Assembly (NCBI RefSeq): GCF_048403405.1
Contig: NZ_CP183129.1
Length of the DNA stretch: 64,000 bases
Source of the DNA: Escherichia coli
GTDB lineage: Bacteria > Pseudomonadota > Gammaproteobacteria > Enterobacterales > Enterobacteriaceae
Reading direction: 5' to 3' (one strand)
Under the pieces are notes generated by a model. That model was given only the letters and a program-made list of their open reading frames with translations, was not told the origin of the DNA and ran no database searches. Below, in pieces: positions 3,998 through 39,261 of the stretch (the first letter of the stretch is position 1; each line of letters begins with the position of its first letter). Made by a program: the position numbers and the translations under genes.

Positions 3998-4057
3998 TAC
4001 TGCTCCTGAGATATTAACAGGAGTAAGTGTAGACGTTGGGAAATGATGTTTGTGAAG

Positions 4058-4906: not shown

Positions 4907-5013
4907 TTTGTTCTCCTTAATTATGTAAAGAGTATTTGATCATGTATACGCAATAAAAAACAGCTTCAGGTAATGAGGAATATCTCAATTTTTAAACATA
5001 AAATGCGAATTAC

Positions 5014-5615
5014 TTAGTACAAAAAGTGTACTTCTGATGATCTTTCCCTGTCCTTGGCACCATCATTTTTTGACGCTTCAAAAATACTACTACAAGTGAG
5101 TTTAGAAAACTCTTTTCCAGATAATTCTCCAGGTTGTAATCCTCCGCCGCCAAAAATCCTACTCCCAGGATTTCCATACCTATTTAGAGCATATGAATAG
5201 CAATTATTTACGGCAAGATAATACGCATCTGAATTTAGTTCTCGATTGAATACTGGAGCAGGTTTATCAATTAAGCCCAGCGGATCAATAGAATAGGTTG
5301 GATGTATGGAAGCATATACATACTGATTCCACCCGCCTTCCAGCCCAATCGGTTCCTGAGTGATATACCGCCCCTGCAGCGGGTCATAATAGCGGTGGCG
5401 GTTGTAATACAGGCCGGACTCCTCATCATACTGCTGCCCCGGCAGACGGATAAGCTGCTGCAGGTGCTGCGGGTTCTCTTCAGTCAGCAGGTTGCCCCAT
5501 TCATCATATTCTGCGCACCATTCTGTTGCCCCGTCAGGGCTGATAAGCGTCAGCGGCAGGCCGCGATAGTCGCAGTGGTAGAGGTGGATTATTCGCAGTG
5601 GTAGAGGTGGATTAT
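5014..5615 (-). pseudogene. Orphan rhs C-terminal fragment (core end plus alternative C-terminal tip), no start codon
   Basis: My minus-strand translation gives an open frame [106 protein letters not shown] followed by a distinct ~85-aa tip ending ...[12 protein letters not shown] and a TAA at 5016..5014. Nucleotides ~5290..5560 are a near-copy of rhsC 6650..6930. The frame contains no Met, which is why the ORF track shows only the antisense ORF 5302..5604. Confidence 0.8.
5561..5613. repeat. Tandem direct repeat, 23-bp unit cgcagtggtagaggtggattatt x2 plus partial third copy
   Basis: Read directly: 5561..5583 and 5584..5606 are identical, followed by cgcagtg. It lies at the upstream boundary of the orphan rhs fragment and corresponds to rhsC sequence near 6908..6930. 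Confidence 0.85.
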
Positions 5616-5706
5616 TCGCAGTGATCTATATGCCAACGTCATCTTATTTTTCATCTACTCCAACGAGTAGACAAGTTTTTTATTAAACCATTTATACCTT
5701 TTACGA

Positions 5707-6210
5707 TTAAATTTTCTTATGTAATAGAGGTGAATAATCTTCCCAAAAATCCATACAAGCTTTACTTGCATAAAAGAATCCAGCGTCTGATTCATAAGAC
5801 ATAAACTGTGCAATAATAGATAGTTGTATATCTGAAAAATTAAAAACAAAATTCAAAAAATCATCGTGATCCCGATACTCAGGACATAAATATTGTTGAA
5901 TAAAATCGGATTCAAAAACCCAAAAATCATTCTTATTAAACAACGAGGCATAAATATACAGAGGGATGTAATAGCAGAATACTTTCTCAGGGAGGAATGT
6001 AATTCCTAACTCTAAAGCATAAGAGTCATCCTTTATTTTAAAATTGTTGGCTATTTCATTCCATTGTTTCTTTTGGAAAAAATTATATACAATATCCAGT
6101 TCCTCCAGCCCTGTAATATCATTTGAAATATGAGGTAATGGCTGGCATGGGAAATGAATCATAAGTTCATCATAGACTGCACTCTCGTTAGAGAAAATTA
6201 TTTTTTTCAT
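5707..6210 (-). CDS. Putative RhsC-associated immunity protein (RhsI-type)
   Basis: AT-rich ORF directly downstream of rhsC. The ATG at 6210..6208 ([20 protein letters not shown]...) overlaps the rhsC TGA (6209..6207) in an ATGA arrangement. The track start at 6228 is a TTG extension. No recognisable catalytic motifs; position is typical for an Rhs immunity gene. Confidence 0.7.
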
Positions 6211-25915: not shown

Positions 25916-26269
25916 GGGTTAATCCTCTTTGACGTATAAATTGCTGCACCAAAGGTGAACAGCGAAAAAAATAAAAATTAAAAAAGTAGCGTTGAGAAAA
26001 GTCTCGCTGACTACAGGAACAGACTATTTTTCGCGACGCGAATTATCAATCTCTTTCTGTAACCAGAATGTAAGAACATGAGCAACCGCACATATTTTGA
26101 TGATTTTTGTTACAAGGCTTAAGTTGTAGTTGAAAGGTGTGTTGAAGAAAAAATGCGTGAATTTCCAGCAAGATGAAAGCGGTTACATTTTATTTAATTA
26201 TGATTTGTAATTTTAAATTTGCTTTATGAATAAATTACGAAGCAGAATTAATTCGCGAAGAAAAGCAGA

Positions 26270-26294
26270 AAAAAACGCCGCGGAGCGCGGCGTT
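26270..26294 (-). terminator. Rho-independent terminator downstream of glnS
   Basis: On the minus strand: hairpin cgccgcgctccgcggcg followed by a T-run. Confidence 0.6.
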
Positions 26295-26362
26295 TGGGAT
26301 TGTTTGCATATTTCTTGCCGGATGCGGCGTAAACGCCTCACCCGGCCTGGTAGAACTTAAAA

Positions 26363-28027
26363 TTACTCGCCTACTTTCGCCCAGGTATCACGCAGCCCAA
26401 CGGTGCGATTAAATACCGGTTTTTCCGCCGTAGAATGGCGGCTGTCGAGGCAGAAATAACCTTCACGCTCAAACTGGAATGCTTTACCCGCTACCGCGTC
26501 TTTCAGAGACGGTTCAGCAAAGCCCTGTTTGATCACCAGCGATTCCGGGTTAATCACCGACAGGAAATCATCCGCAGCACCTGGGTTCGGCACGCTGAAC
26601 AGACGATCGTACAGGCGGATTTCAACCGGCAGCGCATGTGCCGAGCTCACCCAGTGAATAACGCCTTTCACTTTACGACCATCTGCCGGATCTTTGCTTA
26701 AGGTGTCGGCGTCATAAGTACAGAAGATGGTGGTGATATTGCCTTCGGCATCTTTCTCCACGCGTTCTGCCTTAATGACGTAAGCATTACGCAGACGCAC
26801 TTCTTTACCCAGCACCAGACGCTTGTACTGCTTGTTAGCTTCTTCGCGGAAATCGGCGCGGTCGATCCAAATCTCACCGCTAAACGGCACCTGACGGCTC
26901 CCCATTTCCGGTTTGTTCGGATGGTTCGGCATGGTAACCATTTCGCCTTCGCCCTGGTAGTTTTCGATAACCAGTTTCACCGGATCGATAACCGCCATTG
27001 CGCGCGGGGCGTTTTCGTTGAGATCTTCACGGATGCAGGATTCCAGCGACGCCATTTCAATGGTGTTGTCCTGCTTGGTCACGCCGATGCGTTTGCAGAA
27101 CTCACGAATAGAAGCCGCAGTGTAACCACGACGACGCAGACCGGAAATGGTCGGCATACGCGGGTCATCCCAGCCTTCAACGTGCTTGTCGGTCACCAGC
27201 AGGTTCAGCTTACGCTTGGACATCACAGTGTATTCCAGATTCAGGCGCGAGAATTCGTACTGGCGCGGGTGAACAGGAATGGTGATGTTGTCCAACACCC
27301 AGTCGTACAGGCGACGGTTGTCCTGGAACTCAAGCGTACACAGAGAGTGCGTAATACCTTCCAGCGCATCGCTGATGCAATGGGTGAAGTCGTACATCGG
27401 GTAGATGCACCACTTGTTGCCAGTCTGGTGGTGTTCAGCAAATTTAATGCGGTACAGCACCGGATCGCGCATTACGATAAATGGCGACGCCATGTCGATT
27501 TTCGCACGCAGGCAGGCTTTACCTTCTTCAAAACCGCCGGCACGCATTTTTTCGAACAGCGCCAGGTTCTCTTCAACGCTGCGGTCGCGGTACGGGCTGT
27601 TTTTACCCGGCTGCGTCAGGGTGCCACGGTATTCGCGGATCTGTTCCGGCGTCAATTCATCAACGTACGCCAGGCCTTTATTGATCAGTTCGATCGCATA
27701 GGCGTGGAGCTGATCAAAATAATCGGAGGAGTAACGGACGTTACCAGACCAGTGAAAACCTAACCACTCAACGTCGTTTTTGATCGACTCGACATACTCG
27801 ATATCTTCTTTTACCGGGTTAGTGTCGTCGAAACGCAGGTTGCACTGGCCTTTATAGTCCTGGGCGATCCCGAAGTTCAGGCAGATAGATTTCGCATGGC
27901 CAATATGCAGATAGCCATTCGGCTCCGGCGGGAAACGGGTGTGTACTGTGGTGTGCTTACCACTGGCCAGATCTTCATCGATGATCTGACGGATAAAGTT
28001 AGTCGGGCGGGCTTCTGCCTCACTCAT
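26363..28027 (-). CDS. glnS: Glutaminyl-tRNA synthetase
   Basis: 554 aa; class I motifs HIGH (LHIGHAKS) and KMSKS-type (VMSKRKL). Confidence 0.97.
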
Positions 28028-28246
28028 CGTGGATTCCTCAAAGCGTAAACAACGTATAACGGCGTATGATCTTATAAGCGGGACAGGCTGACAACTGTTA
28101 GTTAGTGAAAAAGTGGTTTTGCGTAAGATATTGGGGCGTTTTCTGCGCTACAGCCAGCAGATCCTCGCGCTGGAGACGTAAGGCCAAACGTCGCCAGCCT
28201 GACGCGTCTATTAAATTTCCGGATGAGCTGGCCGCAGAGTCGTAGA

Positions 28247-29008
28247 TTAATCGGCTATGATTAAACGCGTCGATAAGGACGCAAGCGTTCTACGCGTCTG
28301 CCCATCAAGCTGATTATCCGTAATAATCTCTGTCAGTTCATTAAGATGCGCGATATTAAACAGCGACCATGAACCGTATTTTGAGCTGTCAGCCAGGAGA
28401 ATTTTGCGCGAAGCATGCGCGATAAGATCGCGTTTTAGTGCGGCTTTCTCTTCCGTGGGTGCTGTAATACCCTTTTCAAGATCCCAGCTGTTACAGCTTA
28501 AAAATGCCACGTCCGGCCAGGTATTTTGCAGCAATTTACGACCATGTTCGCCAATGCAGGACTGGCTGGAGTCGTCGATACGTCCACCGATAATCGTCAC
28601 TTCAATCTGCTTGAATTCAGCCAAAAAAAGCGCGATATGCAGGTCGCTGGTGATCACGCGAAGCGGTAAATGTGTAATCTGCCGCGCAAGTTCAATCATT
28701 GTCGTACCGGCATCAAGGACGACGGAATCCCCCGCTTTGACCATTGACGCCGCTGCGCTGGCGATGGCATGTTTTTCCGCCAGGCTGCGCTGCATTTTCT
28801 CATGGGTAGTCGGTTGGGTAGGAATAAACCGGTTGAGGGTCACACCGCCGTGTGTACGGCTGATAACACCCTGCTCATCGAGTTTTATCAGGTCTCGACG
28901 AATCGTGGCCGGCGACGCATTGGTTACCGCCACCAGCTCATCAACGGTGACCAGATTATGGCTTTTCAGGTAATCCATGATCTGCTCTAACCGGTTATAT
29001 CCCTTCAT
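28247..29008 (-). CDS. DeoR-family transcriptional regulator (island gene)
   Basis: 253 aa with N-terminal HTH ([37 protein letters not shown]) and a DeoR-type C-terminal sugar-phosphate sensor domain. Its start codon lies 1 nt from the stop of the upstream PdxA-family gene. Confidence 0.8.
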
Positions 29009-29009
29009 T

Positions 29010-29996
29010 TTATTCTCGCGAAATCTGCATTGCTAACTGGATGGAAACTGCCATGCTCTCAGACTTGGCTTTTCCTGTCCAGGCAATATCAAACGCGGTG
29101 CCGTGGTCGGCAGAAGTGCGAATAAATGGCAACCCGGCGGTGATATTCACCCCATCATAAAATCCAAGCAGTTTTAAAGGGATATGCCCCTGATCGTGGT
29201 ACATAGCCACTACCATATCGAATAGCCCTTCATGGCATTGCATAAACACGGTATCTGGCGGGCACGGGCCAGTAACATCAATATCTTCGGCCTGCATTGC
29301 TTCAATCGCAGGCGCGATAATCTCGATTTCTTCAGTGCCGAATAAACCGTGTTCCCCTGCATGTGGATTTACACCCGCCACGGCAATACGCGGACGCTCA
29401 ATACCAACACGTTTCAGGAAGTGGTTCGCAACTCGAATAACCGTTTTGACCCTTTCACCATTCAAAGTATCCAGGAATTTACGCAGTGAGATATGCGTCG
29501 AAATATGGATAACCTTGAGCTTATCGGTATAGAGCACCATCGCGTACTCTTTGCTGCCGGTAAGATGGGCCAGCAATTCCGTATGCCCCGGATAGTTATG
29601 CCCGCCAAGATGCAACGCTTCTTTATTCAGCGGCGCAGTGGCTATGGCTTTCACCTCGCCTGATAAGGCCAGGGCCGTTGCACGTTTGATACAGCGATAC
29701 GCTAAATCGCCTGCCGCAGCCTGTACCACTCCGGGTGTCAGCGCATCGGGGTTAGCCAGCGGCTCATCCATCACGTTAATCACGCCGGGAGCAAAATGGG
29801 CGTCGCACACCTTTTCAATGACGCGTAACTCTGCCTTCGGCGTGATATTCATCGCCATAATACGTCTCAGCGTGCGCACACAGCCCACCACCACCACCGG
29901 GGCACCAGCAAGCCCGGCTTCGCTCAGGGATTTAATAATGATCTCCGGGCCAATACCCGCCGGGTCGCCCATCGTTACCGCAATAATATTATTCAC
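29010..29996 (-). CDS. PdxA-family NAD-dependent dehydrogenase (PdxA2-like)
   Basis: 328 aa; N-terminus [22 protein letters not shown] matches the PdxA GxPxGIGPE signature, and [11 protein letters not shown] matches the conserved metal-binding His region. Confidence 0.8.
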
Positions 29997-31227
29997 TACG
30001 CTTCTCCTCGATAAAATTCAGAACCTGATGCAACGTGGTCTCATCGCCAAACCCACCGGCTTTCGTCATCACCGAACGGGACCAGACGCCGCCCAGAAAG
30101 TGACCGTATGGAACGCATTGCGCCACCTTCGCCGTAATACGAAATCCGGTCGCGCCTAACGCACTGGCTGTTGCCATTGCGACATCACCACCAGAGAGAT
30201 AAAGCGCATCGGGCATTGCGCGAAGCAGAACTTGCCGGGTAAGTTCGCCAAGAAACCGGCAAATTTTTTCCCCAAGCGCAGCGCGACTCATCTGCCAACG
30301 CTGGCAAAGGGTGTCGATCTGGTGCCTTGCTACAGAATCGTTACAGGTGTGGACAATGCAGTGGTCGCCTTTCTGCAAGGCCTGCACAATACGCGCGTCA
30401 TAGTCACTGGCATTGCCTGCCAGAATGTGTTCAACATCGACGTATATCTGTGTGATACGTGGGTGTGAATGAAGTGTGGCGATCTGCCGTTGAGCGATTT
30501 CGCTCATTGAACCAATAATGGCCAGCACGGTGGGTGGCGGCATAATCGTGGAGCGCCGGGCAACGGCATCACAAATACCAGCGGAGCCGACCAGCAGCAG
30601 CGGTTGTTTAGCCTGCATCACAGCGGCAGCGATGCGATCCAGGTCGCTGTCCGTCTGCGCATCTATCACGCCAATCCACGGTTGCTCATAAGACAAATGG
30701 CTGAGCTGAGAAACCGTAACGGGCTGGCATGGAATGGCCGTCTGCAACCGGATGATGTCCGCAATTCGGGCGCTCAATACCGGGGTTTTCGGATCGCTGG
30801 CAAACTCGGTTTCCGTTATCCGCACACCGTTTACCCAACACTCACCGGCCACTGTGGTCCTTCCCGCCTGAGGAAATGCGGGGGCAACCACTGCGCCCGT
30901 TATACCGCATGCCTTCATCAGGGCTTCAATTTCTGCGCCAATATTGCCTCGCAGCGTGGAATCTATCTTTTTAATCACGAGCGGAGGGTTATTCGCCAGA
31001 GGGAGATGACTCATCAGCGAGGTTATTTTCATCGCCGCCAGCTTAGGATCCATCGCCCGGCTGTCGCTGTTAATCACCCATACGCTGGCATCACCGCGAT
31101 AAGGCATTTCAAAGGCCACATCAACTGTATGCCCCACCTGCGCCAGGCTTACCCCCGCGTCATTGGCTCCCGTGAAATCATCGGCAACGACGAGAATGCT
31201 CGGCTTAGTGATTCCCTTTTCCATCAT
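29989..31227 (-). CDS. DUF1537-family four-carbon acid-sugar kinase
   Basis: N-terminal signature VVADDFTGANDAG characteristic of OtnK/DtnK-type kinases; 8-nt overlap with the downstream PdxA-family gene. Start chosen at the ATG preceded by GGAG (MMEKGITKPS...); the track ORF starts 13 codons upstream. Confidence 0.75.
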   Translation of the reverse strand: MMEKGITKPSILVVADDFTGANDAGVSLAQVGHTVDVAFEMPYRGDASVWVINSDSRAMDPKLAAMKITSLMSHLPLANNPPLVIKKIDSTLRGNIGAEIEALMKACGITGAVVAPAFPQAGRTTVAGECWVNGVRITETEFASDPKTPVLSARIADIIRLQTAIPCQPVTVSQLSHLSYEQPWIGVIDAQTDSDLDRIAAAVMQAKQPLLLVGSAGICDAVARRSTIMPPPTVLAIIGSMSEIAQRQIATLHSHPRITQIYVDVEHILAGNASDYDARIVQALQKGDHCIVHTCNDSVARHQIDTLCQRWQMSRAALGEKICRFLGELTRQVLLRAMPDALYLSGGDVAMATASALGATGFRITAKVAQCVPYGHFLGGVWSRSVMTKAGGFGDETTLHQVLNFIEEKRSE

Positions 31228-31264
31228 CACTCCAGGTTGTTTTATGATAACAATGATTATATTC

Positions 31265-31278
31265 AATCACGATTGATT
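31265..31278. promoter_or_regulatory. Operator-like inverted repeat AATCA-cgat-TGATT in the island divergent promoter
   Basis: Read directly; shares the TGATT/AATCA half-site with the second palindrome at 31360..31375. Confidence 0.4.
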
Positions 31279-31359
31279 AAATGTGAGCAAGCTCAAGTTA
31301 TTAATCACTCGAATAAATTATAAAATTAGACCATGTTACGTAGGCTACGGCATTTTGAA

Positions 31360-31375
31360 TGATTGAATTCAATCA
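31360..31375. promoter_or_regulatory. Perfect 16-bp palindrome TGATTGAATTCAATCA in the island divergent promoter
   Basis: Read directly; lies about 20 bp upstream of the Fe-ADH GTG start, consistent with a repressor operator. Confidence 0.45.
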
Positions 31376-31393
31376 CCAGAAGAGAGGTTATTT

Positions 31394-32551
31394 GTGGTAA
31401 TTATCAATAGCACGATACTGAGCGGCGCAGGCGCTATCCCTTCCCTGACGTCGCTCTTACCCGACATCAGAAAAATGCTGCTGGTCACTGACCGTAATAT
31501 TGCGCAGCTCGACGGTGTGCAGCAGATTCGCGCCTTACTGGAAAAGCACTGCCCGCAGGTTAACGTTATCGATAATGTGCCCGCAGAGCCCACGCATCAT
31601 GATGTGCGCCAGCTAATGGACGCCCCTGGCGATGCCTCTTTTGATGTGGTGGTCGGGATCGGCGGTGGCAGCGTGTTGGATGTGGCGAAGCTGCTATCGG
31701 TGCTTTGCCATCCACAATCACCAGGGCTGGATGCGCTGCTTGCGGGTGAAAAACCGACTCAGAGGGTGCAATCATGGTTGATTCCTACAACCGCCGGAAC
31801 CGGCTCAGAAGCCACGCCGAATGCGATTCTGGCAATCCCTGAGCAAAGCACGAAGGTGGGTATTATTTCCCCGGTGCTGTTACCAGACTATGTGGCGCTT
31901 TTCCCGGAACTGACCACCAGCATGCCCGCGCATATTGCGGCGTCCACGGGCATTGATGCTCTTTGCCACTTACTGGAGTGTTTTACCGCGACCGTGGCAA
32001 ATCCGGTCAGCGATAACGCGGCGCTGACTGGGTTAAGTAAGCTTTTCCGGCACATTCAACCCGCCGTGAACGATCCTCAGGATCTGCGCGCAAAACTGGA
32101 AATGCTGTGGGCGTCTTACTATGGCGGCGTAGCGATAACCCATGCGGGCACGCATCTCGTTCATGCGCTCTCCTACCCGTTAGGTGGCAAATATCATCTG
32201 CCGCATGGCGTCGCGAATGCCATCTTGCTGGCGCCGTGCATGGCGTTTGTTCGCCCCTGGGCGGTCGAGAAATTTGCCCGGGTCTGGGATTGCATTCCCG
32301 ATGCGGAAACCGCCCTGAGCGCGGAAGAAAAATCTCATGCCCTGGTGGCCTGGCTACAGGCATTAGTCAATCAACTCAAGCTACCCAACAATCTCGCGGA
32401 TCTCGGCGTACCGCCAGAGGATATTGCCTCTCTTAGCGAGGCGGCACTGAACGTGAAGCGCCTTATGAACAATGCGCCGTGCCAGCTTGATCTACAGGAC
32501 GTACAGGCCATTTACCAAACACTGTTTCCGCAACATCAATTTAAGGAATAA
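31394..32551 (+). CDS. Iron-containing (group III) alcohol dehydrogenase family oxidoreductase
   Basis: 385 aa; NAD-binding GGGSxxD motif (VGIGGGSVLDVAKLL) and conserved His cluster (HALSYPLGGKYHLPHGVANA). GTG start preceded by GAGAGG. Confidence 0.8.
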   Translation: MVIINSTILSGAGAIPSLTSLLPDIRKMLLVTDRNIAQLDGVQQIRALLEKHCPQVNVIDNVPAEPTHHDVRQLMDAPGDASFDVVVGIGGGSVLDVAKLLSVLCHPQSPGLDALLAGEKPTQRVQSWLIPTTAGTGSEATPNAILAIPEQSTKVGIISPVLLPDYVALFPELTTSMPAHIAASTGIDALCHLLECFTATVANPVSDNAALTGLSKLFRHIQPAVNDPQDLRAKLEMLWASYYGGVAITHAGTHLVHALSYPLGGKYHLPHGVANAILLAPCMAFVRPWAVEKFARVWDCIPDAETALSAEEKSHALVAWLQALVNQLKLPNNLADLGVPPEDIASLSEAALNVKRLMNNAPCQLDLQDVQAIYQTLFPQHQFKE

Positions 32552-32554
32552 ATC

Positions 32555-33442
32555 ATGCCGAAAACCATTGAAGGTGTATTAACCGCCATCGTCACCCCGT
32601 TTACCGCGACCGGCAGTCTGAATATCCCGGCGTTAAAAGTGCAGGTGAATCGTCAACTGGAAGCGGGTAACGCGATTTTTTGCGGCGGCACCAACGGCGA
32701 GTTTTTTGTGTTGAATGAACAGGAGAAGCTCAGCGTTACGCAAACCTGCGTGGATGAAGTGGCTGGTCGTGCGCCGGTCGTGGCACACATTGGCGAGATC
32801 TCGACGCGCGAAACGATTCGTCTGGGTCAGCAGATTGAAAAACTTGGCGTAGATGCTGTGTCGGTCATTACCCCTTACTTCGTACCGCTGAAACAGGAAG
32901 AGTTGATTGCGCATTACAGCGCAATTGCCGACGCGCTGAGCATTCCGATGTTTCTCTATAACATCCCGGCCCGCACTGGCAATACGATCCAGCCGGAAAC
33001 CGCGCGTGCTCTGGCGTCGCATCCCAATATCATTGGGATTAAAGACAGCGCCGGAAGCGACGAAAGCCTGAAGGGTTTTCTCGATGCTGTGCGCAACATT
33101 GACGGCTTTAATGTACTCAACGGCCCGGATTCGCTGATCCATAAAGGGTTTGTCGAGGGGTGTTCAGCCTGTATCTCTGGGCTCGCCAACGTCGCACCGC
33201 GGGAAATCAATGCTATCTGGTCTCGCGTCCATGCCGGTGATATTGAAGGGTCTTATGAAGCACAGGAGAGTGTAACGGGCCTGCGTACCGACCTTTATAA
33301 AGTAGCGTTCTCCCCGGCTGCGGTGAAAAAAGCGTTGCAGCTTATGGGGCATGATGTTGGTGATAGCCGCTACGCGGTTAATTTCACGCCTGAACAGATC
33401 AGCGAGATTCAACAAATTATTCGTCATTATAACATTAATTAA
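32555..33442 (+). CDS. DHDPS/N-acetylneuraminate-lyase-family class I aldolase or dehydratase
   Basis: 295 aa; GTNGEF motif (CGGTNGEFFVLNEQEK), the Tyr-containing ITPYF segment and the Schiff-base lysine context IGIKDSAG, typical of DapA/NanA-family enzymes. Confidence 0.8.
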   Translation: MPKTIEGVLTAIVTPFTATGSLNIPALKVQVNRQLEAGNAIFCGGTNGEFFVLNEQEKLSVTQTCVDEVAGRAPVVAHIGEISTRETIRLGQQIEKLGVDAVSVITPYFVPLKQEELIAHYSAIADALSIPMFLYNIPARTGNTIQPETARALASHPNIIGIKDSAGSDESLKGFLDAVRNIDGFNVLNGPDSLIHKGFVEGCSACISGLANVAPREINAIWSRVHAGDIEGSYEAQESVTGLRTDLYKVAFSPAAVKKALQLMGHDVGDSRYAVNFTPEQISEIQQIIRHYNIN

Positions 33443-33501
33443 ATTAACTCTATTATCCAGCCCGCGATAAAGTTTAGATAAAGAGAATAAAGGATTACTC
33501 C

Positions 33502-34260
33502 ATGTTTTTGTGGTTTATGCAGCCAGATATCTGGCTCACTTTAATTACCCTCACCTTTCTGGAAATTATTCTTGGGGTGGATAATATTATTTTTCTTTCA
33601 CTGGTGGTGGCAAAACTTCCGTTATCACAACAAAATATGGCGCGTAAACTGGGTTTAAGCTGCGCGATGATTATGCGGATATTATTGCTGATATCCATTG
33701 CGTGGCTTTCACATATTACCCAGCCGCTTTTTACCGTGCTGACGCTGGAGATTTCGTTCCGCACGTTGATTCTGCTCGGGGGCGGGCTGTTCCTGATTTA
33801 TAAAGCGATACAGGAGATACGCGAAGAGCTGTCGCCCGCGCAGGAAGACGAACATGGCAGCGGATCGCGGCAACTGTCGTTGTGCGGTGCCATCGTACAG
33901 ATAATGCTGCTCGATATCGTGTTTAGCCTGGATTCGGTGATCACCGCCGTCGGCCTTTCTCAGCATATATTTATCATGATTGCCGCCGTAATGATTGCCG
34001 TCGGTGTCATGATGTTTGCGGCGAAAACAATTGGTGATTTCGTTAACGCCACGCCGTCAATAAAAATACTGGCGTTAACCTTTTTATTATTTGTCGGTGT
34101 ATTGCTGGTTGCCGATAGTCTCAACATTCATATTGCCAAAGAGTATCTCTACTTCGCGATATTTTTCTCATTAAGTGTTGAGACACTCAATATTATCCGT
34201 GAAAGAAGAAATAAAAAAGTTTCGACATTGATCGAAACGCATGAATCGCACTCGCATTAA
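33502..34260 (+). CDS. TerC-family integral membrane protein
   Basis: 252 aa, multiple TM segments, paired TerC motifs GVDNIIF and LDIVFSLDSV. Confidence 0.7.
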   Translation: MFLWFMQPDIWLTLITLTFLEIILGVDNIIFLSLVVAKLPLSQQNMARKLGLSCAMIMRILLLISIAWLSHITQPLFTVLTLEISFRTLILLGGGLFLIYKAIQEIREELSPAQEDEHGSGSRQLSLCGAIVQIMLLDIVFSLDSVITAVGLSQHIFIMIAAVMIAVGVMMFAAKTIGDFVNATPSIKILALTFLLFVGVLLVADSLNIHIAKEYLYFAIFFSLSVETLNIIRERRNKKVSTLIETHESHSH

Positions 34261-34295
34261 TAAATCTATTACCGACTTTAAGATGGAGTCTAACT

Positions 34296-35465
34296 ATGTC
34301 TGTAGCCCTTATTCGTGACGGCGTCATCCGTCCATCCGAAAACGATTCGCATGTGCTTACCGCCATGCTGCCCTCGTCCTGCCCACAAAACCACGCGGCG
34401 AATATTCTGCCTTTGCCGGATGGCGCGTTAATGTGCGTCTGGTTTGCGGGAACGCAGGAAGGTATTGCCGATATTTCTGTCTGGGGATCGCGATTGCCCG
34501 CTGGCGGGATGCAGTGGAGCGATGCGGTCAAACTTTCCCACGATGACACGCGTTCAGAGCAAAACCCAGTGCTGTTTCTCGCGCCGGATAACGTGCTGTG
34601 GCTGCTATGGACCGCACAAATATCCGGGAATCAGGACACCGCCATCGTCCGCTACCGTAAGTCAGACGACCTCGGACAAACCTGGGGCGAGATTGCCACG
34701 CTGCTCGATAAACCCGGCACGTTCATTCGCCAGCCGATCACGGTGCTTGATAACGGCAACTGGCTGCTGCCCGTCTTTTATTGCCGTACCCAACCCGGTG
34801 AAAAATGGGTCGGCAATGATGATATCAGCGCAGTGAAAATTTCCGCTGACGGTGGTCACTCCTGGCGCGATGTCGTGGTGCCGCAAAGTCTCGGCTGCGT
34901 TCATATGAATATCACAATGCTGCACGACAGTACGTTGGTTGCTCTCTTTCGAAGCCGTTGGGCAGACAACATCTATATCAGCCATTCAGTGGACAACGGC
35001 GAGAGTTGGTCGGTGCCGCAAGCTACCGAATTGCCCAACAACAATTCGTCTATTCAGGTAACGACGCTTGCCAGCGGCGAACTGGCGCTGGTGTACAACG
35101 CGATGAGTGCGGCAGGCGCAGTAGAACGTCGCGCGTCGCTTTATGACGAAATCGACGATGGCGACGACAGCCGCAAAGAACCGACAGCCGTCGGACGCTC
35201 CGCTTTCTGGGGGGCCCCACGCGCGCCGATGACGGTAGCGATTTCTGCCGATGGTGGGAAAAGCTGGCCGTGGCGGCGCAATCTCGATGAAGGCGACGGC
35301 TACTGCATGACCAACAATTCCCTGGAAAAGCTAAATCGTGAGTTCTCCTACCCCAGCATCAAACAAAGCCCGGACGGTACGCTACATATCGCTTACACCT
35401 GGTGGCGTCAGGCCATCAAGTACGTGCGCATCTCCCCCGAGTGGGTTAAGGGGCAGGCATCATGA
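34296..35465 (+). CDS. BNR/Asp-box repeat protein (sialidase-like beta-propeller), apparently cytoplasmic
   Basis: 389 aa with four Asp-box motifs (SDDLGQTW, SADGGHSW, SVDNGESW, SADGGKSW). The N-terminus MSVALIRDGVIRPSENDSHV has no signal-peptide features. Confidence 0.75.
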   Translation: MSVALIRDGVIRPSENDSHVLTAMLPSSCPQNHAANILPLPDGALMCVWFAGTQEGIADISVWGSRLPAGGMQWSDAVKLSHDDTRSEQNPVLFLAPDNVLWLLWTAQISGNQDTAIVRYRKSDDLGQTWGEIATLLDKPGTFIRQPITVLDNGNWLLPVFYCRTQPGEKWVGNDDISAVKISADGGHSWRDVVVPQSLGCVHMNITMLHDSTLVALFRSRWADNIYISHSVDNGESWSVPQATELPNNNSSIQVTTLASGELALVYNAMSAAGAVERRASLYDEIDDGDDSRKEPTAVGRSAFWGAPRAPMTVAISADGGKSWPWRRNLDEGDGYCMTNNSLEKLNREFSYPSIKQSPDGTLHIAYTWWRQAIKYVRISPEWVKGQAS

Positions 35466-35932
35466 TTATCGGTAATCTCAACCATTTGTCGCTGGCGGGG
35501 CTTCCCGCCTGGGTGAGAAATATTCTGCTGTGCCCGGAGTGTTCGTTATCGGCGTTATCCGCCAGAGAGGACGGTCGCTGGCAACCTGAAGGATGTCGGT
35601 GGTTCTGCACGCTGGGAACTTCAGACACGCAACCCGCCGAACTCCGCCATACGGAGTATCACCATCTGTGGGCCGATATCCAGGTGGTGATTACTGGTTG
35701 TGAGGGCATTAATGCGGGAACGCGGCCCATCGCTCGCGAAAACGATGAAGAACGTAAGCCCGATCTGTTTATCGCCCCATCCCCTGAAAACAGTGTCGCC
35801 ATCACTCTACACCCCGGTGATTTCGCCGTCTTTATGCCTGAGGAACCTCACCAGGCGCTGTGCGCGATTGGCGCGGCTACGTCAGTACGCAAAGCGGTCT
35901 TTAAGGTACCGCGCGACATGCTGGAAGCCTAA
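35462..35932 (+). CDS. YhcH/YjgK/YiaL (DUF386) family protein
   Basis: 156 aa; C-terminal segment LHPGDFAVFMPEEPHQALCAIG resembles the conserved PGxFxVFxPxEPH motif of the YhcH/EbgC-like family. 4-nt overlap with the upstream BNR gene. Confidence 0.7.
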   Translation: MIIGNLNHLSLAGLPAWVRNILLCPECSLSALSAREDGRWQPEGCRWFCTLGTSDTQPAELRHTEYHHLWADIQVVITGCEGINAGTRPIARENDEERKPDLFIAPSPENSVAITLHPGDFAVFMPEEPHQALCAIGAATSVRKAVFKVPRDMLEA

Positions 35933-35945
35933 AAGGAGAGAAAAA

Positions 35946-37226
35946 ATGACAATGGAAATGATCCTGGCATTAGGAATACTGGTCCTGATGATCGTGCTGA
36001 TCATGTCGGACAAAATGCCATTTGGCGCACCGCCACTGCTTGCGTGTTTATTGCTGGTTGTCTCGGGACTTTCGACCGTTCAACAGGCTTTTGCCGGATT
36101 CGTCAATCCAAGCGTGGTGATGATTGCAGGGTTTATGGTGGTCATGGCAGCGCTACAAAAAACCCGGCTTATCAGCAACGTTAAATCTGCGATGATAAGC
36201 CTGGTCAATAAAGGCAGTTACCGCAGCTACGGGCTGTTGTTAGTCATTGTTATGCTGGGTGCCAGTCTTGCAGGCACCGGCGCGACCGGTTATTACGTGC
36301 TGATTCTGTCGCTGGTATCCACCATTCCGTACAGTAAAAAGCTACCAACATCGAAATTAATGATGCCCCTGGGATTTGCCACCAACCACCCGCTTCTTCC
36401 TATCAATCTCGCGCTTCTCTTTGGCGTTACGGCGACCGTACTCGAAACCGCGGGTTTTCATCAGGAGATTTCGATGGGGCGCTTTGCGCTGGTGAATCTC
36501 ATCATGTCAGCGGCGTTCCTCGCATGGAGTCTTATTGCCTACCGTTTTCTTCCGGATCATCCCATTGCGGATGCTTCCGAGGATGCGCTGGCGGCACGCG
36601 AGGAAACGTTTAACGCCCTTCCTGCCTGGAAAGAATATTGCACTATTGCCGCATTCGCTGTCAGCGTTATCGGCATGATGCTAATGAACATTCTGGGAAA
36701 TATCGCCTTCGTTATTCCGGGTCTTGCGGGTGCGTTTGTTCTGATGATCGATGTACTGGACTTTAAAGAAGTTCGCGATCATATGGGAGCGCCGGTCATT
36801 TTAATGATGGCGGGGGTGATCGGTGTAGCTGATGCACTGGCGGGCACCGGCTTTACGGCGATGGTTGGCGATGCCGTTGCAGGTGTGCTCGGTTCTGGCG
36901 TCTCACCGTTTGTATTTATTGTCGCCTTTGCTTTGCTTACCAGTACCTGCGCCACCTTCACGGGTTCGAATATGGGGTCTGTTTATATTTTTGCCCCCAT
37001 CGCCATTGCCGCCTGTACCAGCCTTGGGCTTAACCCGACCGCTGCAGCGATTGCGGTGGTGATTTCAGGCTGGAACGGCGGCTATATGCCTATTGACGGA
37101 ATGCCAGCCATGATCCTCGGAATGGGGAAATACAAACTTCCCGAATTCTGGGTGTTCTCTGTACCAATGTATCTCATCCGCATTCTGGCGCTTTGTGCAG
37201 GCGCTGTTTTTATCTTCCCAATGTAA
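35946..37226 (+). CDS. Ion-transporter-superfamily anion permease (GntP/CitMHS/DASS-like), putative sugar-acid importer
   Basis: About 426 aa of polytopic membrane protein from the ATG at 35946 preceded by AGGAGA. The track ORF 35700..37226 carries an 82-codon non-membrane extension that overlaps the YhcH gene in another frame. Confidence 0.7.
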   Translation: MTMEMILALGILVLMIVLIMSDKMPFGAPPLLACLLLVVSGLSTVQQAFAGFVNPSVVMIAGFMVVMAALQKTRLISNVKSAMISLVNKGSYRSYGLLLVIVMLGASLAGTGATGYYVLILSLVSTIPYSKKLPTSKLMMPLGFATNHPLLPINLALLFGVTATVLETAGFHQEISMGRFALVNLIMSAAFLAWSLIAYRFLPDHPIADASEDALAAREETFNALPAWKEYCTIAAFAVSVIGMMLMNILGNIAFVIPGLAGAFVLMIDVLDFKEVRDHMGAPVILMMAGVIGVADALAGTGFTAMVGDAVAGVLGSGVSPFVFIVAFALLTSTCATFTGSNMGSVYIFAPIAIAACTSLGLNPTAAAIAVVISGWNGGYMPIDGMPAMILGMGKYKLPEFWVFSVPMYLIRILALCAGAVFIFPM

Positions 37227-37234
37227 TCTCAGAC

Positions 37235-37272
37235 AAAAAAAGCGGCAGAGAAGATCCCTGCCGCTTTTTATT
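37235..37272. terminator. Bidirectional rho-independent terminator between the island permease and nagE
   Basis: Hairpin agcggcagagaagatccctgccgct flanked by an A-run and a T-run; a REP-like palindrome gatgcgacgctgccgtgtcgcatc follows at 37277..37300. Confidence 0.65.
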
Positions 37273-37314
37273 GTTGGATGCGACGCTGCCGTGTCGCATC
37301 AGGTATAAAGCAGA

Positions 37315-39261
37315 TTACTTTTTGATTTCATACAGCGGCGTTTGACCCGCCACGACATGGCCCTGAGCTTTAATGATCAAGCCGCTGAAATCGTCGATAT
37401 TGCTGCAAACCACCGGGCTAATCATCGAGCGGGCGTTAGCGTTCAGGTAATCCAGATCCATTTCCAGAATCGGTTGTCCTGCGCTTACCTGCGCGCCCTC
37501 TTCCACCAGACGTTTAAAACCTTTACCTTCCAGCGCTACGGTGTCGATACCCATATGGACGACGATCTCCGCGCCTTTTTCGGTTTCCAGGCAGAACGCG
37601 TGGTTGGTATTGAAGATTTTCACGATTGTCCCTGCGGCTGGTGATACGACGATTTTATCTGTCGGTTTCACCGCCACACCGTCACCCACCGCTTTGCTGG
37701 CGAATGCTTCGTCAGGAACCTGATCCAGTGCCACAACATCACCGGTAATCGGCGATACCAGCTCCGCGACAGACACCGCGTTTGGTATAGCCTGCGGTTT
37801 TGCTACAGGCGCGGCAGTTGCAGGCGCAGTTTCAGCTGACGTAGCGGCTACCGGACCACGGGCAACAACTTTCTTCATTGCATCGCCAATGGATTCCGCT
37901 TTCGCGCCAACAATCACCTGAATAGTCTGTTTGTTCAGTTTCACTACCCCAGAAGCACCCAGCCGTTTACACATCGCATCGTTGACGCGAGCCGAGTCAA
38001 CCACGGTCAGGCGCAGACGAGTAATACAGGCGTCAATTGCTTTCAGGTTGTCAGTGCCGCCAACCGCAGCAATATAGTTGGTCGCCAGTTGATTGAGGCC
38101 TTCTTCAGTGTTGCTGTTGGCTTCTTCAGTAACGATCTCATCTTCTTTATCTTCACGACCCGGCGTTTTCAGGTTGAACATGCGGATAACCAAACTGAAC
38201 ACCACGAAGTAGATAGCGAAGAAGACAACACCCATCACCAGCAGCATCCAGACGTTCTGGCTGGCGGCCGGCAGGTTATACATCAACGCGTAGTCGATAG
38301 CCCCCGCAGAGAAGGAGAAGCCCGCGTGGATACCCAGCAGCGTTGCCACAAACAGGCTGATACCGGTCAGCAGTGCGTGCAGGAGGTACAGCAGCGGCGC
38401 AAGGAACATGAACAGGAATTCCAGCGGCTCAGTCACACCGGTCAGGAACGCAGTAACAGCAACAGAAAGCAGCATACCGCCAACCATCGGACGACGCTCT
38501 TTCGGTGCTGCAAAGTACATCGCCAGCGCCGCACCCGGCAGACCGAACATCATGATCGGGAAGAAGCCGGACATGAACATCCCCGCGGTGCCGTCACCGG
38601 CATAGAAGCGGTTGATGTCACCGTGGAAAACCGTACCCGCCGCGTTGGTGAATTCACCAATCTGGAACCAGGCGATGGTGTTCAGTACCTGATGCAGACC
38701 GGTTGGGATCAGCAGACGGTTGATGAAACCAAAGATACCGGAACCCAGCGCGCCCGCAGAAACGATCCACTCGCCGCCTGCATGGATAGCGTGCTGTACC
38801 GGCGGCCAGACGTAACCAAAAATGGCCGCCAGCACCAGGCAGAAGAAGCCGGTGGCAATCGGCACAAAGCGTTTGCCGCCGAAGAAACTCAGGAAGTCCG
38901 GCAGTTTAATATCGGACCAACGGTTATAAGCTGCGCCACCAACCAGACCGGTAATGATACCCGCCAGTACACCCATGTTAATTTCCGGGTTGATGGTCAC
39001 CATCGCTTTGGTTAACACAAAGTAACCTACCGCACCCGCCAGCGCCGCCGCACCTGCGCTGTCTTTCGACCAGCTGGATGCCACACCGATGGCGAAGATT
39101 AATGCGAGGTTATCAAAAATCGCACCGCCCGCCTGGGCAATAAACGCAACGTTAAGTAAATCTGGCTGACCGAATCGCAGCAACAGCGCCGCCACCGGCA
39201 GCACCGCGATAGGGAGCTGTAACGCCCTACCGAGTCGCTGGAAAAAACCTAAAATATTCAT
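37315..39261 (-). CDS. nagE: PTS N-acetylglucosamine-specific EIICBA component
   Basis: 648 aa; EIIC membrane domain, EIIB Cys region (IDACITRLRL) and C-terminal EIIA domain. Confidence 0.95.
   Translation of the reverse strand: MNILGFFQRLGRALQLPIAVLPVAALLLRFGQPDLLNVAFIAQAGGAIFDNLALIFAIGVASSWSKDSAGAAALAGAVGYFVLTKAMVTINPEINMGVLAGIITGLVGGAAYNRWSDIKLPDFLSFFGGKRFVPIATGFFCLVLAAIFGYVWPPVQHAIHAGGEWIVSAGALGSGIFGFINRLLIPTGLHQVLNTIAWFQIGEFTNAAGTVFHGDINRFYAGDGTAGMFMSGFFPIMMFGLPGAALAMYFAAPKERRPMVGGMLLSVAVTAFLTGVTEPLEFLFMFLAPLLYLLHALLTGISLFVATLLGIHAGFSFSAGAIDYALMYNLPAASQNVWMLLVMGVVFFAIYFVVFSLVIRMFNLKTPGREDKEDEIVTEEANSNTEEGLNQLATNYIAAVGGTDNLKAIDACITRLRLTVVDSARVNDAMCKRLGASGVVKLNKQTIQVIVGAKAESIGDAMKKVVARGPVAATSAETAPATAAPVAKPQAIPNAVSVAELVSPITGDVVALDQVPDEAFASKAVGDGVAVKPTDKIVVSPAAGTIVKIFNTNHAFCLETEKGAEIVVHMGIDTVALEGKGFKRLVEEGAQVSAGQPILEMDLDYLNANARSMISPVVCSNIDDFSGLIIKAQGHVVAGQTPLYEIKK

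Follow-up and report, generated by a model that had tools for sequence, protein, structure and literature searches.

Closest described systems

A kinase and a dehydrogenase that convert D-threonate are known from Salmonella Typhimurium, where Zhang et al. 2016 characterised the D-threonate pathway (summarised in PMC10971088). The kinase and dehydrogenase of the E. coli island analysed here pass the corresponding NCBIfam equivalog cut-offs, and a DeoR regulator lies alongside. The island PdxA2 is 75% identical to Salmonella PdxA2 (P58718), whereas the kinase is only ~40% identical to Salmonella DtnK (PMC12928451). Unlike the Salmonella pathway, the island adds an upstream module comprising a permease, a sialidase-fold protein, a YhcH-family protein, a lyase and an Fe-dependent alcohol dehydrogenase (Fe-ADH), and it would produce D-threonate inside the cell rather than take it up. 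The second related system is E. coli nanATEK-yhcH (NanA, NanQ, NanT), which likewise combines a class I DHDPS/NanA-family lyase, a YhcH-family protein and a dedicated anion transporter. The island differs from it in lacking NanK and NanE, in its transporter family, in a lyase nearer to DapA than to NanA, with an equivalent of DapA Arg138, and in a downstream product that would be a C4 acid rather than ManNAc. In the D-galactarate/D-glucarate pathway, a 2-keto-3-deoxy-aldarate is cleaved by GarL to pyruvate and a semialdehyde-acid, which the tartronate-semialdehyde reductase GarR reduces to a hydroxy-acid and GarK then phosphorylates. The scheme proposed below mirrors this logic with a substrate one carbon longer, a class I DHDPS-type lyase instead of a class II HpcH-type one, an Fe-ADH instead of a beta-hydroxyacid dehydrogenase, a DUF1537 kinase, and an additional oxidative decarboxylation by PdxA2.

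The region itself was listed among uncharacterized features of ExPEC/AIEC as "GR 6 (nagE..glnS)" (PLoS One 2026, PMC12928451), reported complete in APEC O1, IMT5155, RS218, IHE3034, 78-Pyelo, CFT073 and LF82. GR 6 is the identical island with identical ORFs; that paper ties the kinase/PdxA2 pair to PLP synthesis and proposes neither a pathway nor a substrate. Our literature search found no pathway assigned to the island. The island appears to encode an undescribed pathway for a seven-carbon sugar acid of plant pectin, probably Dha, ending in pyruvate and DHAP.

An inserted island between glnS and nagE

The window is a 64,000-nucleotide stretch of an E. coli genome. In K-12 RP437 and EC571, glnS and nagE are neighbours with a 202-bp spacer; when these empty spacers were aligned to the window, the match ran on the left up to 28111 and resumed on the right at 37232, and the insert replaced ~35 bp of the spacer. 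The features are as follows.

28112..37231, no strand: inserted island of 9120 bp, from the glnS promoter side to the nagE terminator (alignment with empty spacers)
28247..29008, minus: DeoR/GlpR-family regulator, whose gene ends the minus-strand operon (NCBIfam, RefSeq)
29010..29996, minus: PdxA2, 4-phospho-D-threonate dehydrogenase (decarboxylating), product DHAP + CO2 (NF002891)
29989..31224, minus: DUF1537 kinase, called D-threonate kinase DtnK (NF047819; start as RefSeq)
31263..31276, no strand: operator-like inverted repeat TCAATCAcGATTGA in the divergent promoter region
31360..31375, no strand: second operator-like palindrome TGATTGAATTCAATCA, immediately upstream of the Fe-ADH start
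31394..32551, plus: Fe-ADH, proposed to reduce 2,3-dihydroxy-4-oxobutanoate to D-threonate (Pfam/NCBIfam Fe-ADH)
32555..33442, plus: class I lyase of the DHDPS/NanA family, proposed to act as a Dha aldolase (TIGR00674)
33502..34260, plus: TerC-family membrane protein (TIGR03716/03717 matches under cut-off)
34296..35465, plus: cytoplasmic BNR_2 protein of sialidase fold, containing four Asp-boxes, tentatively proposed as a ketosidase for ulosaric acids
35462..35932, plus: YhcH/NanQ-family protein, proposed as the anomerase that opens the ring of the lyase substrate (TIGR00022)
35946..37226, plus: DASS/SLC13 anion permease, proposed to import the dicarboxylate substrate (weak TIGR00785 match)
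37235..37269, no strand: hairpin between an A-run and a T-run, the pre-existing nagE terminator (sequence)

The earlier note had described nine genes in two divergent, tightly packed operons, inserted as accessory DNA where K-12 has a spacer of ~200 bp. All nine ORFs were found intact at these coordinates, and the measured junctions agree with the packing: the kinase and PdxA2 genes overlap by 8 nt and the sialidase-fold and YhcH genes by 4 nt, and gaps of 1 and 3 nt separate PdxA2 from DeoR and Fe-ADH from the lyase. NCBIfam and Pfam profile searches upheld the nine family calls, and the inability of that note to match the gene set to a named operon accords with our literature search. A survey of complete E. 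coli genomes found the full-length island in 1047 of 5426 (about a fifth). The copy was always single and always chromosomal; carriers include CFT073, for which RefSeq annotates the same nine genes, EC958 and NRG 857C, and the island is enriched in B2 pathogens. The GC content (0.45–0.58 per 500 bp) does not contrast with the flanks, and the island has neither an integrase nor a tRNA gene, nor do repeats flank it.

Proposed route from Dha to pyruvate and DHAP

Dha (3-deoxy-D-lyxo-hept-2-ulosaric acid) is a component of the pectin rhamnogalacturonan-II. Judged from sequence and from comparison across genomes, we see about an even chance that the island encodes a complete catabolic system, under DeoR control, that acts on a cyclic 2-keto-3-deoxy dicarboxylic sugar acid, most likely Dha. 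The substrate, free or as a small ketoside, would be imported as an anion by the DASS permease and, if bound, freed from its ketosidic partner by the cytoplasmic sialidase-fold protein. The YhcH-type anomerase may then open the pyranose ring, the lyase may cleave Dha to pyruvate and threo-2,3-dihydroxy-4-oxobutanoate, and Fe-ADH may reduce the latter to D-threonate. Finally, DtnK would phosphorylate D-threonate at O4, and PdxA2 would oxidise and decarboxylate 4-phospho-D-threonate to DHAP and CO2. We propose these last two steps because both proteins match the characterised D-threonate enzymes at equivalog level: PdxA2 scored 681 bits against NF002891 (cut-off 583) and the kinase 532 bits against NF047819 (cut-off 450; NCBIfam). 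An alternative in-frame ATG of the kinase gene lies one codon upstream, at 31227. NF047819 was also the best match for four of the five cluster-linked kinases tested from other phyla. Fischer-projection analysis placed C5 and C6 of D-lyxo Dha at C3 and C2 of the tetronate, giving the D-threo isomer; the stereochemistry of Dha yields D-threonate, the very substrate called for the kinase and PdxA2 by NCBIfam.

The remaining steps are suggested by the upstream module. The best NCBIfam models for Fe-ADH were ErcA, FucO and 4-hydroxybutyrate dehydrogenase (~213–218 bits, all under cut-off), and its PDB relatives are FucO and methanol dehydrogenase. It resembles semialdehyde/aldehyde reductases, 4-hydroxybutyrate dehydrogenase among them, and its assumed role as a semialdehyde reductase led us to a dicarboxylic C7 ulosaric acid as the island substrate. 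DapA (DHDPS) uses Arg138 to bind the carboxylate of its C4 semialdehyde substrate. The lyase, which scored 191 bits against TIGR00674 (cut-off 206, NCBIfam), retains the Schiff-base Lys163, the catalytic Tyr135 and, as the Arg138 equivalent, Arg140, and carries Asn47 and Phe109 against DapA Thr45 and Tyr107. Arg140 is conserved among cluster orthologs across phyla, with Leu at the NanA equivalent, and would fit a substrate with a distal carboxylate. The YhcH-family protein (97 bits against TIGR00022, cut-off 45.5; 91 bits against the NanQ equivalog, under its cut-off of 160; PDB relatives 9jrr and 1jop) implies a mostly cyclic substrate, since NanQ functions as a sialic-acid anomerase (PMC8141875).

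The ketosidase step is the least certain. The best structural matches of the sialidase-fold protein are GH33 sialidases and a KDNase, and its translation has no N-terminal hydrophobic signal sequence, as the earlier note had read it. It is just 15–19% identical to GH33 exo-sialidases and the KDNase, to GH181 (Akkermansia Am1547) and to GH143 (BT1020), and unlike these it is cytoplasmic, with His33 and His203 in place of the expected Arg and catalytic Glu. His33 is invariant and lies roughly where the first Arg of the triad is expected; the Tyr-activating Glu of GH181 corresponds in the alignment to His203, a position that holds His or Gln throughout the family. The active site is non-canonical. 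The GH143 Dha-hydrolase domain of B. thetaiotaomicron BT1020, for comparison, is five-bladed, periplasmic or surface-located, and lies within a PUL. We know of no activity for the family of the island protein. Several points speak against the Dha proposal: a cytoplasmic ketosidase requires an imported glycoside, and we know of no disaccharide transport by DASS carriers; Dha is a minor sugar that may not be available to E. coli in the gut; and the scheme leaves TerC without a function. The TerC gene was confined, among related loci, to the cluster variant of E. coli, Klebsiella, Kluyvera and Aeromonas, and a riboswitch search for it found none.

Linkage across phyla and alternative readings

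Among 80 related loci spread over several bacterial phyla, 52 combine the sialidase-fold gene with those for Fe-ADH, the DHDPS-like lyase, the DUF1537 kinase and PdxA2, and 57 have three or more of these partners; Fe-ADH is found at 58 and the DeoR regulator at 43. Six or more arrangements of the genes were seen, in clusters from Enterobacterales, Gilliamella, Vibrio, Lonepinella, Betaproteobacteria, Bacillus, Clostridium, Paenibacillus, Negativicutes and Alphaproteobacteria. This co-occurrence in differing orders led us to regard the nan-like and PdxA2/DUF1537 halves as functionally linked. The earlier interpretation stands as to an accessory island, its families, the lack of a named pathway and the linked halves; it is refined by Fe-ADH, to which it had given no role. 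Many hosts are plant-associated or pectin-degrading (Pectobacterium, Dickeya, Erwinia, Pantoea, Gilliamella), a GH28 polygalacturonase-like gene lies near the clusters in Pantoea and the Bacillus pumilus group, and the Aeromonas cluster has a KdgM-family porin; hosts and neighbours point to pectin. The transporters vary (DASS, SSF, TAXI-TRAP, ACS-family MFS), all being anion or acid-sugar types. Most related clusters have an SSF carrier and a 229-aa SDR, both absent from the E. coli island, and at some loci of Pantoea, Bacillus and Bradyrhizobium an SSF-BNR-SDR trio stands by itself; neither is accounted for by the Dha proposal.

The same logic might serve another 2-keto-3-deoxy acid, with seven carbons or a different number, such as 3-deoxy-D-arabino-heptulosonate or an unknown heptulosaric isomer, with D-erythronate or a tetrose as the C4 product and DenK or another tetronate kinase as the kinase. 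We regard this as unlikely. The low identity to DtnK means that D-erythronate or another acid may be the kinase substrate, the Firmicutes-cluster kinases fall under the DtnK cut-off, the SDR that most clusters carry could form a lactone by oxidising a tetrose, and DUF1537 also takes in a D-erythronate kinase, according to PMC10971088. A mono-acid, however, would leave Fe-ADH without a productive role, E. coli has no SDR, and the DASS/ACS-type carriers and the conserved Arg140 favour a dicarboxylate. To our knowledge, Dha is the sole natural heptulosaric acid.

Doubtful, and slightly more so, is a chance association of two unrelated modules, one nan-like (permease, sialidase-like protein, YhcH, lyase) that would act on Kdo or a different ulosonic acid and one for D-threonate utilisation (kinase, PdxA2, DeoR). 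The Salmonella dtnK-pdxA2 cluster reportedly stands without the remaining island genes, the SSF-BNR-SDR trio is found by itself at some loci, and Kdo is secreted by RG-II-grown Bacteroides, with no consumer pathway known (bioRxiv 10.64898/2026.03.13.711244). Yet the two modules stay linked through the rearranged gene orders in several phyla, Firmicutes clusters interleave the kinase and PdxA2 with the lyase and Fe-ADH, and D-arabinose from Kdo cleavage has no obvious handler among the island enzymes.

It is very improbable that the kinase/PdxA2 pair serves pyridoxal-phosphate synthesis or 4-hydroxy-L-threonine detoxification, as described in PMC12928451. STM0162, a DUF1537 kinase of Salmonella, is able to phosphorylate 4-hydroxy-L-threonine (Thiaville et al. 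2016, via PMC12928451 and PMC10971088), and PdxA2 also exceeds the cut-off of the generic PdxA model TIGR00557 (370 bits), but its top-scoring model is the D-threonate 4-phosphate dehydrogenase equivalog, across phyla the pair lies within clusters for sugar-acid catabolism that also carry a transporter and a lyase, and the core PLP pathway is present in E. coli in any case. Equally remote is an ExPEC virulence island for sialic-acid (Neu5Ac, KDN) scavenging with a sialidase: RefSeq names ("sialidase family protein", "exo-alpha-sialidase", NanQ-like), the structural matches and the B2 enrichment recommend it, but the sialidase-fold protein is cytoplasmic and lacks the canonical RIP Arg and Tyr-partner Glu in the alignment, ManNAc kinase and epimerase are absent from the island, its relatives are chiefly in plant-associated bacteria, and nanATEK-yhcH is already in E. 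coli.

Matches of the DeoR regulator to NCBIfam DeoR-family models (AgaR, YgbI, GlpR) were all under equivalog cut-off. TCAATCA/TGATTGA heptamers, putative binding sites of this regulator, recur between the kinase and Fe-ADH genes at most of the orthologous loci in enterobacteria, and many genera have a second site near the Fe-ADH start. The nagE hairpin, within the flank common to empty-site strains, probably also terminates the plus-strand operon. As for the permease, its Aeromonas ortholog matches Pfam Na_sulph_symp/CitMHS, and the copies in Clostridium and Paenibacillus clusters are 76–78% identical.

Gene content and position of the island

The nine genes between glnS and nagE were recovered as the earlier note had described them, both in the ORF table and in the RefSeq annotation of CFT073, which holds the same nine genes.

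Features of the island and its flanks (window coordinates; genes from the ORF table)
26363-28027, minus strand, glnS (island flank)
28247-29008, minus strand, DeoR-family regulator
29010-29996, minus strand, PdxA-family dehydrogenase
29989-31224, minus strand, DUF1537 kinase
31263-31276 and 31360-31375, divergent promoter, candidate operators (TCAATCA/TGATTGA inverted repeats that recur in orthologs)
31394-32551, plus strand, Fe-dependent alcohol dehydrogenase (Fe-ADH)
32555-33442, plus strand, DHDPS/NanA-family lyase
33502-34260, plus strand, TerC-family membrane protein
34296-35465, plus strand, BNR/sialidase-fold protein
35462-35932, plus strand, YhcH-family protein
35946-37226, plus strand, DASS/SLC13 permease
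~37235-37269, nagE terminator hairpin
37315-39261, minus strand, nagE (other island flank)

Neighboring genes overlap or are separated by gaps of 1-13 nt, except around the TerC gene. All nine family assignments held on searches with NCBIfam and Pfam models, and two of the proteins, the PdxA-family protein and the kinase, exceeded curated equivalog cut-offs. Most orthologous loci of enterobacteria have the TCAATCA/TGATTGA repeats in the corresponding intergenic region, and the repeats are putative operators. Consensus scans for promoters and terminators gave matches at chance level.

The description of the region as an insert into a short spacer was also confirmed: the glnS-nagE spacing is 202 bp in K-12 RP437 and EC571. 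Alignment of these two spacers to the window placed the island junctions at 28111/28112 and 37231/37232, with 9120 bp in place of ~35 bp of the spacer. The nagE terminator hairpin lies in the flank shared with the empty-site strains and probably doubles as the end of the plus-strand operon. The island has neither an integrase nor a tRNA gene, is not flanked by repeats, and is unremarkable in base composition.

Of 5426 complete E. coli genomes, 1047 carry the island at full length, as a single chromosomal copy in every case; the carriers include CFT073, ST131 EC958, AIEC NRG 857C, ABU 83972, and APEC strains. Compared at 34296-35465, the window copy is ~98.2% identical to those of most carriers (CFT073, EC958, and others) and reaches at least 99% identity in only seven genomes (e.g. 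GN02461 and TUM14771). Therefore, either the window derives from a minority lineage or two allelic forms of the island exist. CFT073 carries an IS200C transposase gene between chiP and glnS (1647-2105 of its locus, L001); the corresponding gap in the window (25916-26362) is only 447 bp, into which this gene would not fit.

A 2026 PLoS One study of APEC BEN2908 (PMC12928451) named the region 'GR 6 nagE..glnS' in a table of uncharacterized features, found the entire region in seven ExPEC/AIEC strains of the B2 lineage, and noted that homologs of the sialidase-like, DapA-like, and ADH genes cluster in Sinorhizobium meliloti. Beyond this descriptive entry, the searchable literature yielded no pathway for the island. 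The island has therefore already been described, with its function unassigned in that literature, in agreement with the earlier view that the gene set matches no named operon.

Proposed route from a pectic sugar acid to DHAP

The idea of an uncharacterized acid-sugar island was retained and is sharpened here to a specific substrate and route. We propose, with moderate confidence in the statement as a whole, that 3-deoxy-D-lyxo-hept-2-ulosaric acid (Dha), a sugar acid of the pectic rhamnogalacturonan-II (RG-II), is converted to pyruvate and D-threonate, and D-threonate to DHAP. The general logic of an acid-sugar pathway is probable.

The best-anchored part of the pathway, judged from model scores, is its predicted end. 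The DtnK/PdxA2 route is said to have been characterized by Zhang et al. in 2016. In the island, the kinase would convert D-threonate to 4-phospho-D-threonate, which PdxA2 is predicted to oxidize in an NAD-dependent manner and decarboxylate, giving DHAP and CO2. The PdxA-family protein matched the D-threonate 4-phosphate dehydrogenase equivalog NF002891 over its full length (residues 1-326; 681 bits vs a cut-off of 583). With the D-threonate kinase model NF047819, the kinase reached 532 bits (cut-off 450), and with the OtnK model only 107 bits, far under the cut-off; it has the two-domain DUF1537 architecture, and Pfam SBD_N and NBD_C were found on the Aeromonas ortholog. The kinase may prefer D-threonate to D-erythronate or 3-oxo-tetronate. 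The D-threonate kinase model was also the best NCBIfam match for the kinases of four of five distant clusters, the fifth giving no match at threshold.

From a 2-keto-3-deoxy acid, class I lyases of the DHDPS/NanA type release pyruvate together with an aldehyde. The Fe-ADH, which is the only further oxidoreductase of the E. coli island besides PdxA2 and whose closest models are aldehyde/semialdehyde reductases (e.g. FucO and 4-hydroxybutyrate dehydrogenase), would reduce the aldehyde released by the lyase to D-threonate. If so, the aldehyde would already be carboxylated, namely 2,3-dihydroxy-4-oxobutanoate, and the lyase substrate would in turn be a C7 2-keto-3-deoxy dicarboxylic acid. To our knowledge, Dha is the sole natural acid of this kind. 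It is located in side chain D of RG-II (bioRxiv 10.64898/2026.03.13.711244). By our own derivation, C4, C5, and C6 of Dha point left, left, and right in the Fischer projection, and after cleavage and reduction C6 would be C2 of the tetronate (left) and C5 would be its C3 (right). We infer that this tetronate is D-threo, which is one of four possible isomers and the one predicted by the kinase and PdxA2 calls. The kinase is only ~40% identical to the characterized DtnK (as given in PMC12928451), which would suit a different C7 acid as the substrate, a reading that we consider unlikely. This reading and that of two independent modules, slightly less likely still, are the leading rivals of the proposal. 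The Dha scheme is analogous to the GarL/GarR/GarK galactarate route, the island version being one carbon longer.

The lyase was aligned with DapA and NanA of E. coli K-12 and with cluster orthologs from other phyla. Its Schiff-base residue Lys163 (in GIKDS) aligns with DapA K161 and NanA K165, and its catalytic Tyr135 (in YNIPARTG) with DapA Y133 and NanA Y137. Arg140 is the equivalent of DapA Arg138, whereas NanA has leucine at this position. DapA Arg138 binds the carboxylate of aspartate semialdehyde, a C4 semialdehyde-acid. Arg140 is kept, with lysine once, in the cluster-linked orthologs of Dickeya, Gilliamella, Vibrio, Bacillus, Clostridium, Lonepinella, Lucifera, Formivibrio, and Paenibacillus. 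Cleavage of Dha would need a DHDPS-like enzyme able to condense pyruvate with a C4 semialdehyde-acid or to reverse that reaction, and the fit of the lyase to this description provides independent support for the predicted reaction.

The lyase is neither DapA proper nor NanA. DapA is recognized by the catalytic triad Tyr133-Thr44-Tyr107 together with Thr45; in the lyase, Tyr107 and Thr45 are replaced by Phe109 and Asn47, which are kept in the orthologs, and the DapA model TIGR00674 gave 191 bits against a cut-off of 206. The NanA models gave 114 bits against 382 (TIGR00683) and 148 against 281 (NF003164), and the positions of the sialic-acid-binding residues Glu192, Ser208, and Leu142 hold serine, glycine, and arginine, respectively.

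The YhcH-family protein exceeded the cut-off of TIGR00022 (YhcH/YjgK/YiaL, DUF386; 97 bits vs 45.5) and fell below that of the NanQ equivalog NF040884 (91.5 bits vs 160). NanQ/YhcH supplies NanA with the open-chain form of its substrate and has no effect on an already open acid (PMC8141875). By analogy, the presence of a homolog in the cluster implies that the lyase substrate would be mostly cyclic.

Linkage of the cluster genes across phyla

Genomes were scanned with the sialidase-fold protein, using a profile from an 11-sequence alignment closer than the 26-sequence family set. From 563 confirmed relatives, 80 loci were obtained, in which ORFs were called and compared with the nine island proteins. 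The Fe-ADH, lyase, kinase, and PdxA2 were all present in 52 of the 80 loci and at least three of them in 57; YhcH was found in 47. The loci come from Enterobacterales (Pectobacterium, Dickeya, Erwinia, Pantoea, Klebsiella, Enterobacter, and Kosakonia) and from Gilliamella, Vibrio, Lonepinella, Rhodocyclales-type Betaproteobacteria, Bacillus, Clostridium, Paenibacillus, Lucifera, and Alphaproteobacteria. There are at least six gene orders among them, and in the Firmicutes clusters the lyase and Fe-ADH genes are interleaved with those of the kinase and PdxA2. This linkage across phyla supports the earlier suggestion that a nan-like module is joined to a PdxA2/DUF1537 module, and argues for one pathway rather than two modules that hitch-hike together; that the two are independent appears improbable given the variety of orders and the interleaving.

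Two further readings can be set aside as unlikely: PLP salvage, although the kinase and PdxA2 pair has been tied to PLP synthesis (PMC12928451), and sialic-acid scavenging. Kdo, KDN, and Neu5Ac are poor fits as substrates to the downstream enzymes.

The transporter is the variable element of the cluster. Most clusters have an SSF carrier, those of E. coli, Klebsiella, Kluyvera, Aeromonas, Clostridium, and Paenibacillus a DASS carrier, and the remainder TAXI-TRAP or ACS-family MFS carriers; all four are carrier types for anionic solutes. The island permease, named 'SLC13 family permease' in RefSeq, matched TIGR00785 weakly (56.7 bits vs a cut-off of 198.6, spanning residues 6-414), and its Aeromonas ortholog (87% identical) carries Pfam Na_sulph_symp and CitMHS. 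The E. coli permease is 76-78% identical to those of Clostridium caldaquaticum (L063 1747) and Paenibacillus ginsengihumi (L076 11337). This exceeds the E. coli-Firmicutes identity of any other shared cluster gene and suggests that the transporter gene was acquired horizontally not long ago.

Plant-associated and pectin-degrading bacteria are prominent among the hosts. In Pantoea and the Bacillus pumilus group, the cluster has a GH28 polygalacturonase-like gene nearby, and in Aeromonas enteropelogenes it ends, after TerC, with a gene for a KdgM-family (oligogalacturonate/NanC-type) porin (L004 13888-14592). The latter cluster adjoins antitoxin and RadC-like mobile-element genes. Beyond the cluster, the flanking DNA of Gilliamella, Paenibacillus, Clostridium, Pectobacterium, and Bradyrhizobium was occupied by unrelated genes, for PBP1C, an amino-acid ABC transporter, choline TMA-lyase, and sporulation; therefore, the conserved unit is the cluster itself. 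In three Pantoea loci (L002, L003, and L015, including P. stewartii), PdxA2 is present and an adjacent gap of ~850 bp (~4110-4961) holds no ORF for a DUF1537 kinase; the kinase gene may have decayed there.

A route for the catabolism of Dha was not found in searchable papers, and gut-microbe consumer pathways for Kdo, another RG-II sugar, are unconfirmed (bioRxiv 10.64898/2026.03.13.711244). If the proposed route is correct, it would fill this gap in pectin turnover, explain a source of D-threonate in nature, and assign a role to an accessory island characteristic of the B2 lineage, which is rich in ExPEC/AIEC (CFT073, ST131 EC958, and the LF82-like NRG 857C), suggesting a diet-linked cross-feeding niche in gut colonization. 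B2-lineage E. coli and many plant-associated bacteria would then feed on an RG-II fragment freed by primary degraders of pectin, Bacteroides among them. The joint claim of a first Dha catabolic pathway, a natural origin of D-threonate, RG-II cross-feeding, and a new His-substituted, ulosaric-acid family founded by the cytoplasmic sialidase-fold protein is tentative.

The sialidase-fold protein and elements that fit poorly

The proposed acid-sugar pathway would be built from known families, with one of its enzymes puzzling and a membrane protein left without explanation. The sialidase-fold protein has the GH33-type features of a six-bladed beta-propeller and Asp-box repeats, and lacks a signal peptide. 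A phmmer search against PDB sequences gave nothing at E <= 0.01, and a profile was required, which aligned best with the Akkermansia GH181 sialidase (9eob). The nucleophile Tyr352 aligns with the tyrosine of 9eob and, in an alignment of 26 family members, is shared by at least 90% of them. Arg219 and Arg309 are matched to arginines of GH181. His203 aligns with the Tyr-activating glutamate of 9eob, in the alignment only, and is histidine or glutamine across the family. In a low-confidence alignment with NanI, the spacing to the Asp/Glu loop puts an invariant 'NHA' (His33) at about the position predicted for the N-terminal RIP-motif arginine of the triad, and the invariant Glu55 adjoins the position of the acid/base aspartate of NanI. 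The GH143 Dha-hydrolase (BT1020 N-terminal domain) was rejected as a relative, since neither a five-bladed propeller nor a detectable sequence relationship was found.

Conservation is unusually high, with 60-65% identity between the E. coli and Firmicutes proteins. The family is large and highly conserved; its active site is unusual, and no activity is known for it. We read the protein as a putative sialidase-type enzyme adapted to an ulosaric acid; most simply, it would act as a ketosidase, releasing Dha from a small glycoside that the cell has imported. Of all the steps this one is the weakest, because the active site is non-canonical and we know of no disaccharide transport by DASS carriers.

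The SSF carrier and a 229-aa SDR that flank the propeller gene in most related clusters are both missing from E. coli, which does not fit the proposal. The propeller protein and SDR may be functional partners, a pairing lost from E. coli. The SSF-propeller-SDR trio also occurs without the lyase, ADH, kinase, and PdxA2 in Pantoea (L028-L034 and L065), Bacillus (L054 and L062), and Bradyrhizobium (L082); the Pantoea trio is bordered by genes for a sugar ABC transporter, a LysR regulator, and a protein resembling GH28 polygalacturonases.

TerC is restricted to the enterobacterial and Aeromonas DASS variant of the cluster. Pfam TerC matches its orthologs, and the island protein scored below the cut-offs of the riboswitch-controlled YkoY/YjbE subfamilies (85.6 bits vs 138.5 and 67.4 vs 134.8). 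An Rfam scan of 27900-37400 detected neither an Mn riboswitch (yybP-ykoY) nor any other element upstream of it. In Bacillus haynesii, B. pumilus, and B. xiamenensis (L060, L064, and L075), an Fe(3+)-dicitrate/B12-type ABC importer (binding protein, permease, and ATPase; ~2994-6250) lies directly upstream of the lyase gene. Considered alongside the TerC of the E. coli cluster, this importer is a hint, no more, that the substrate may be taken up as a metal chelate.
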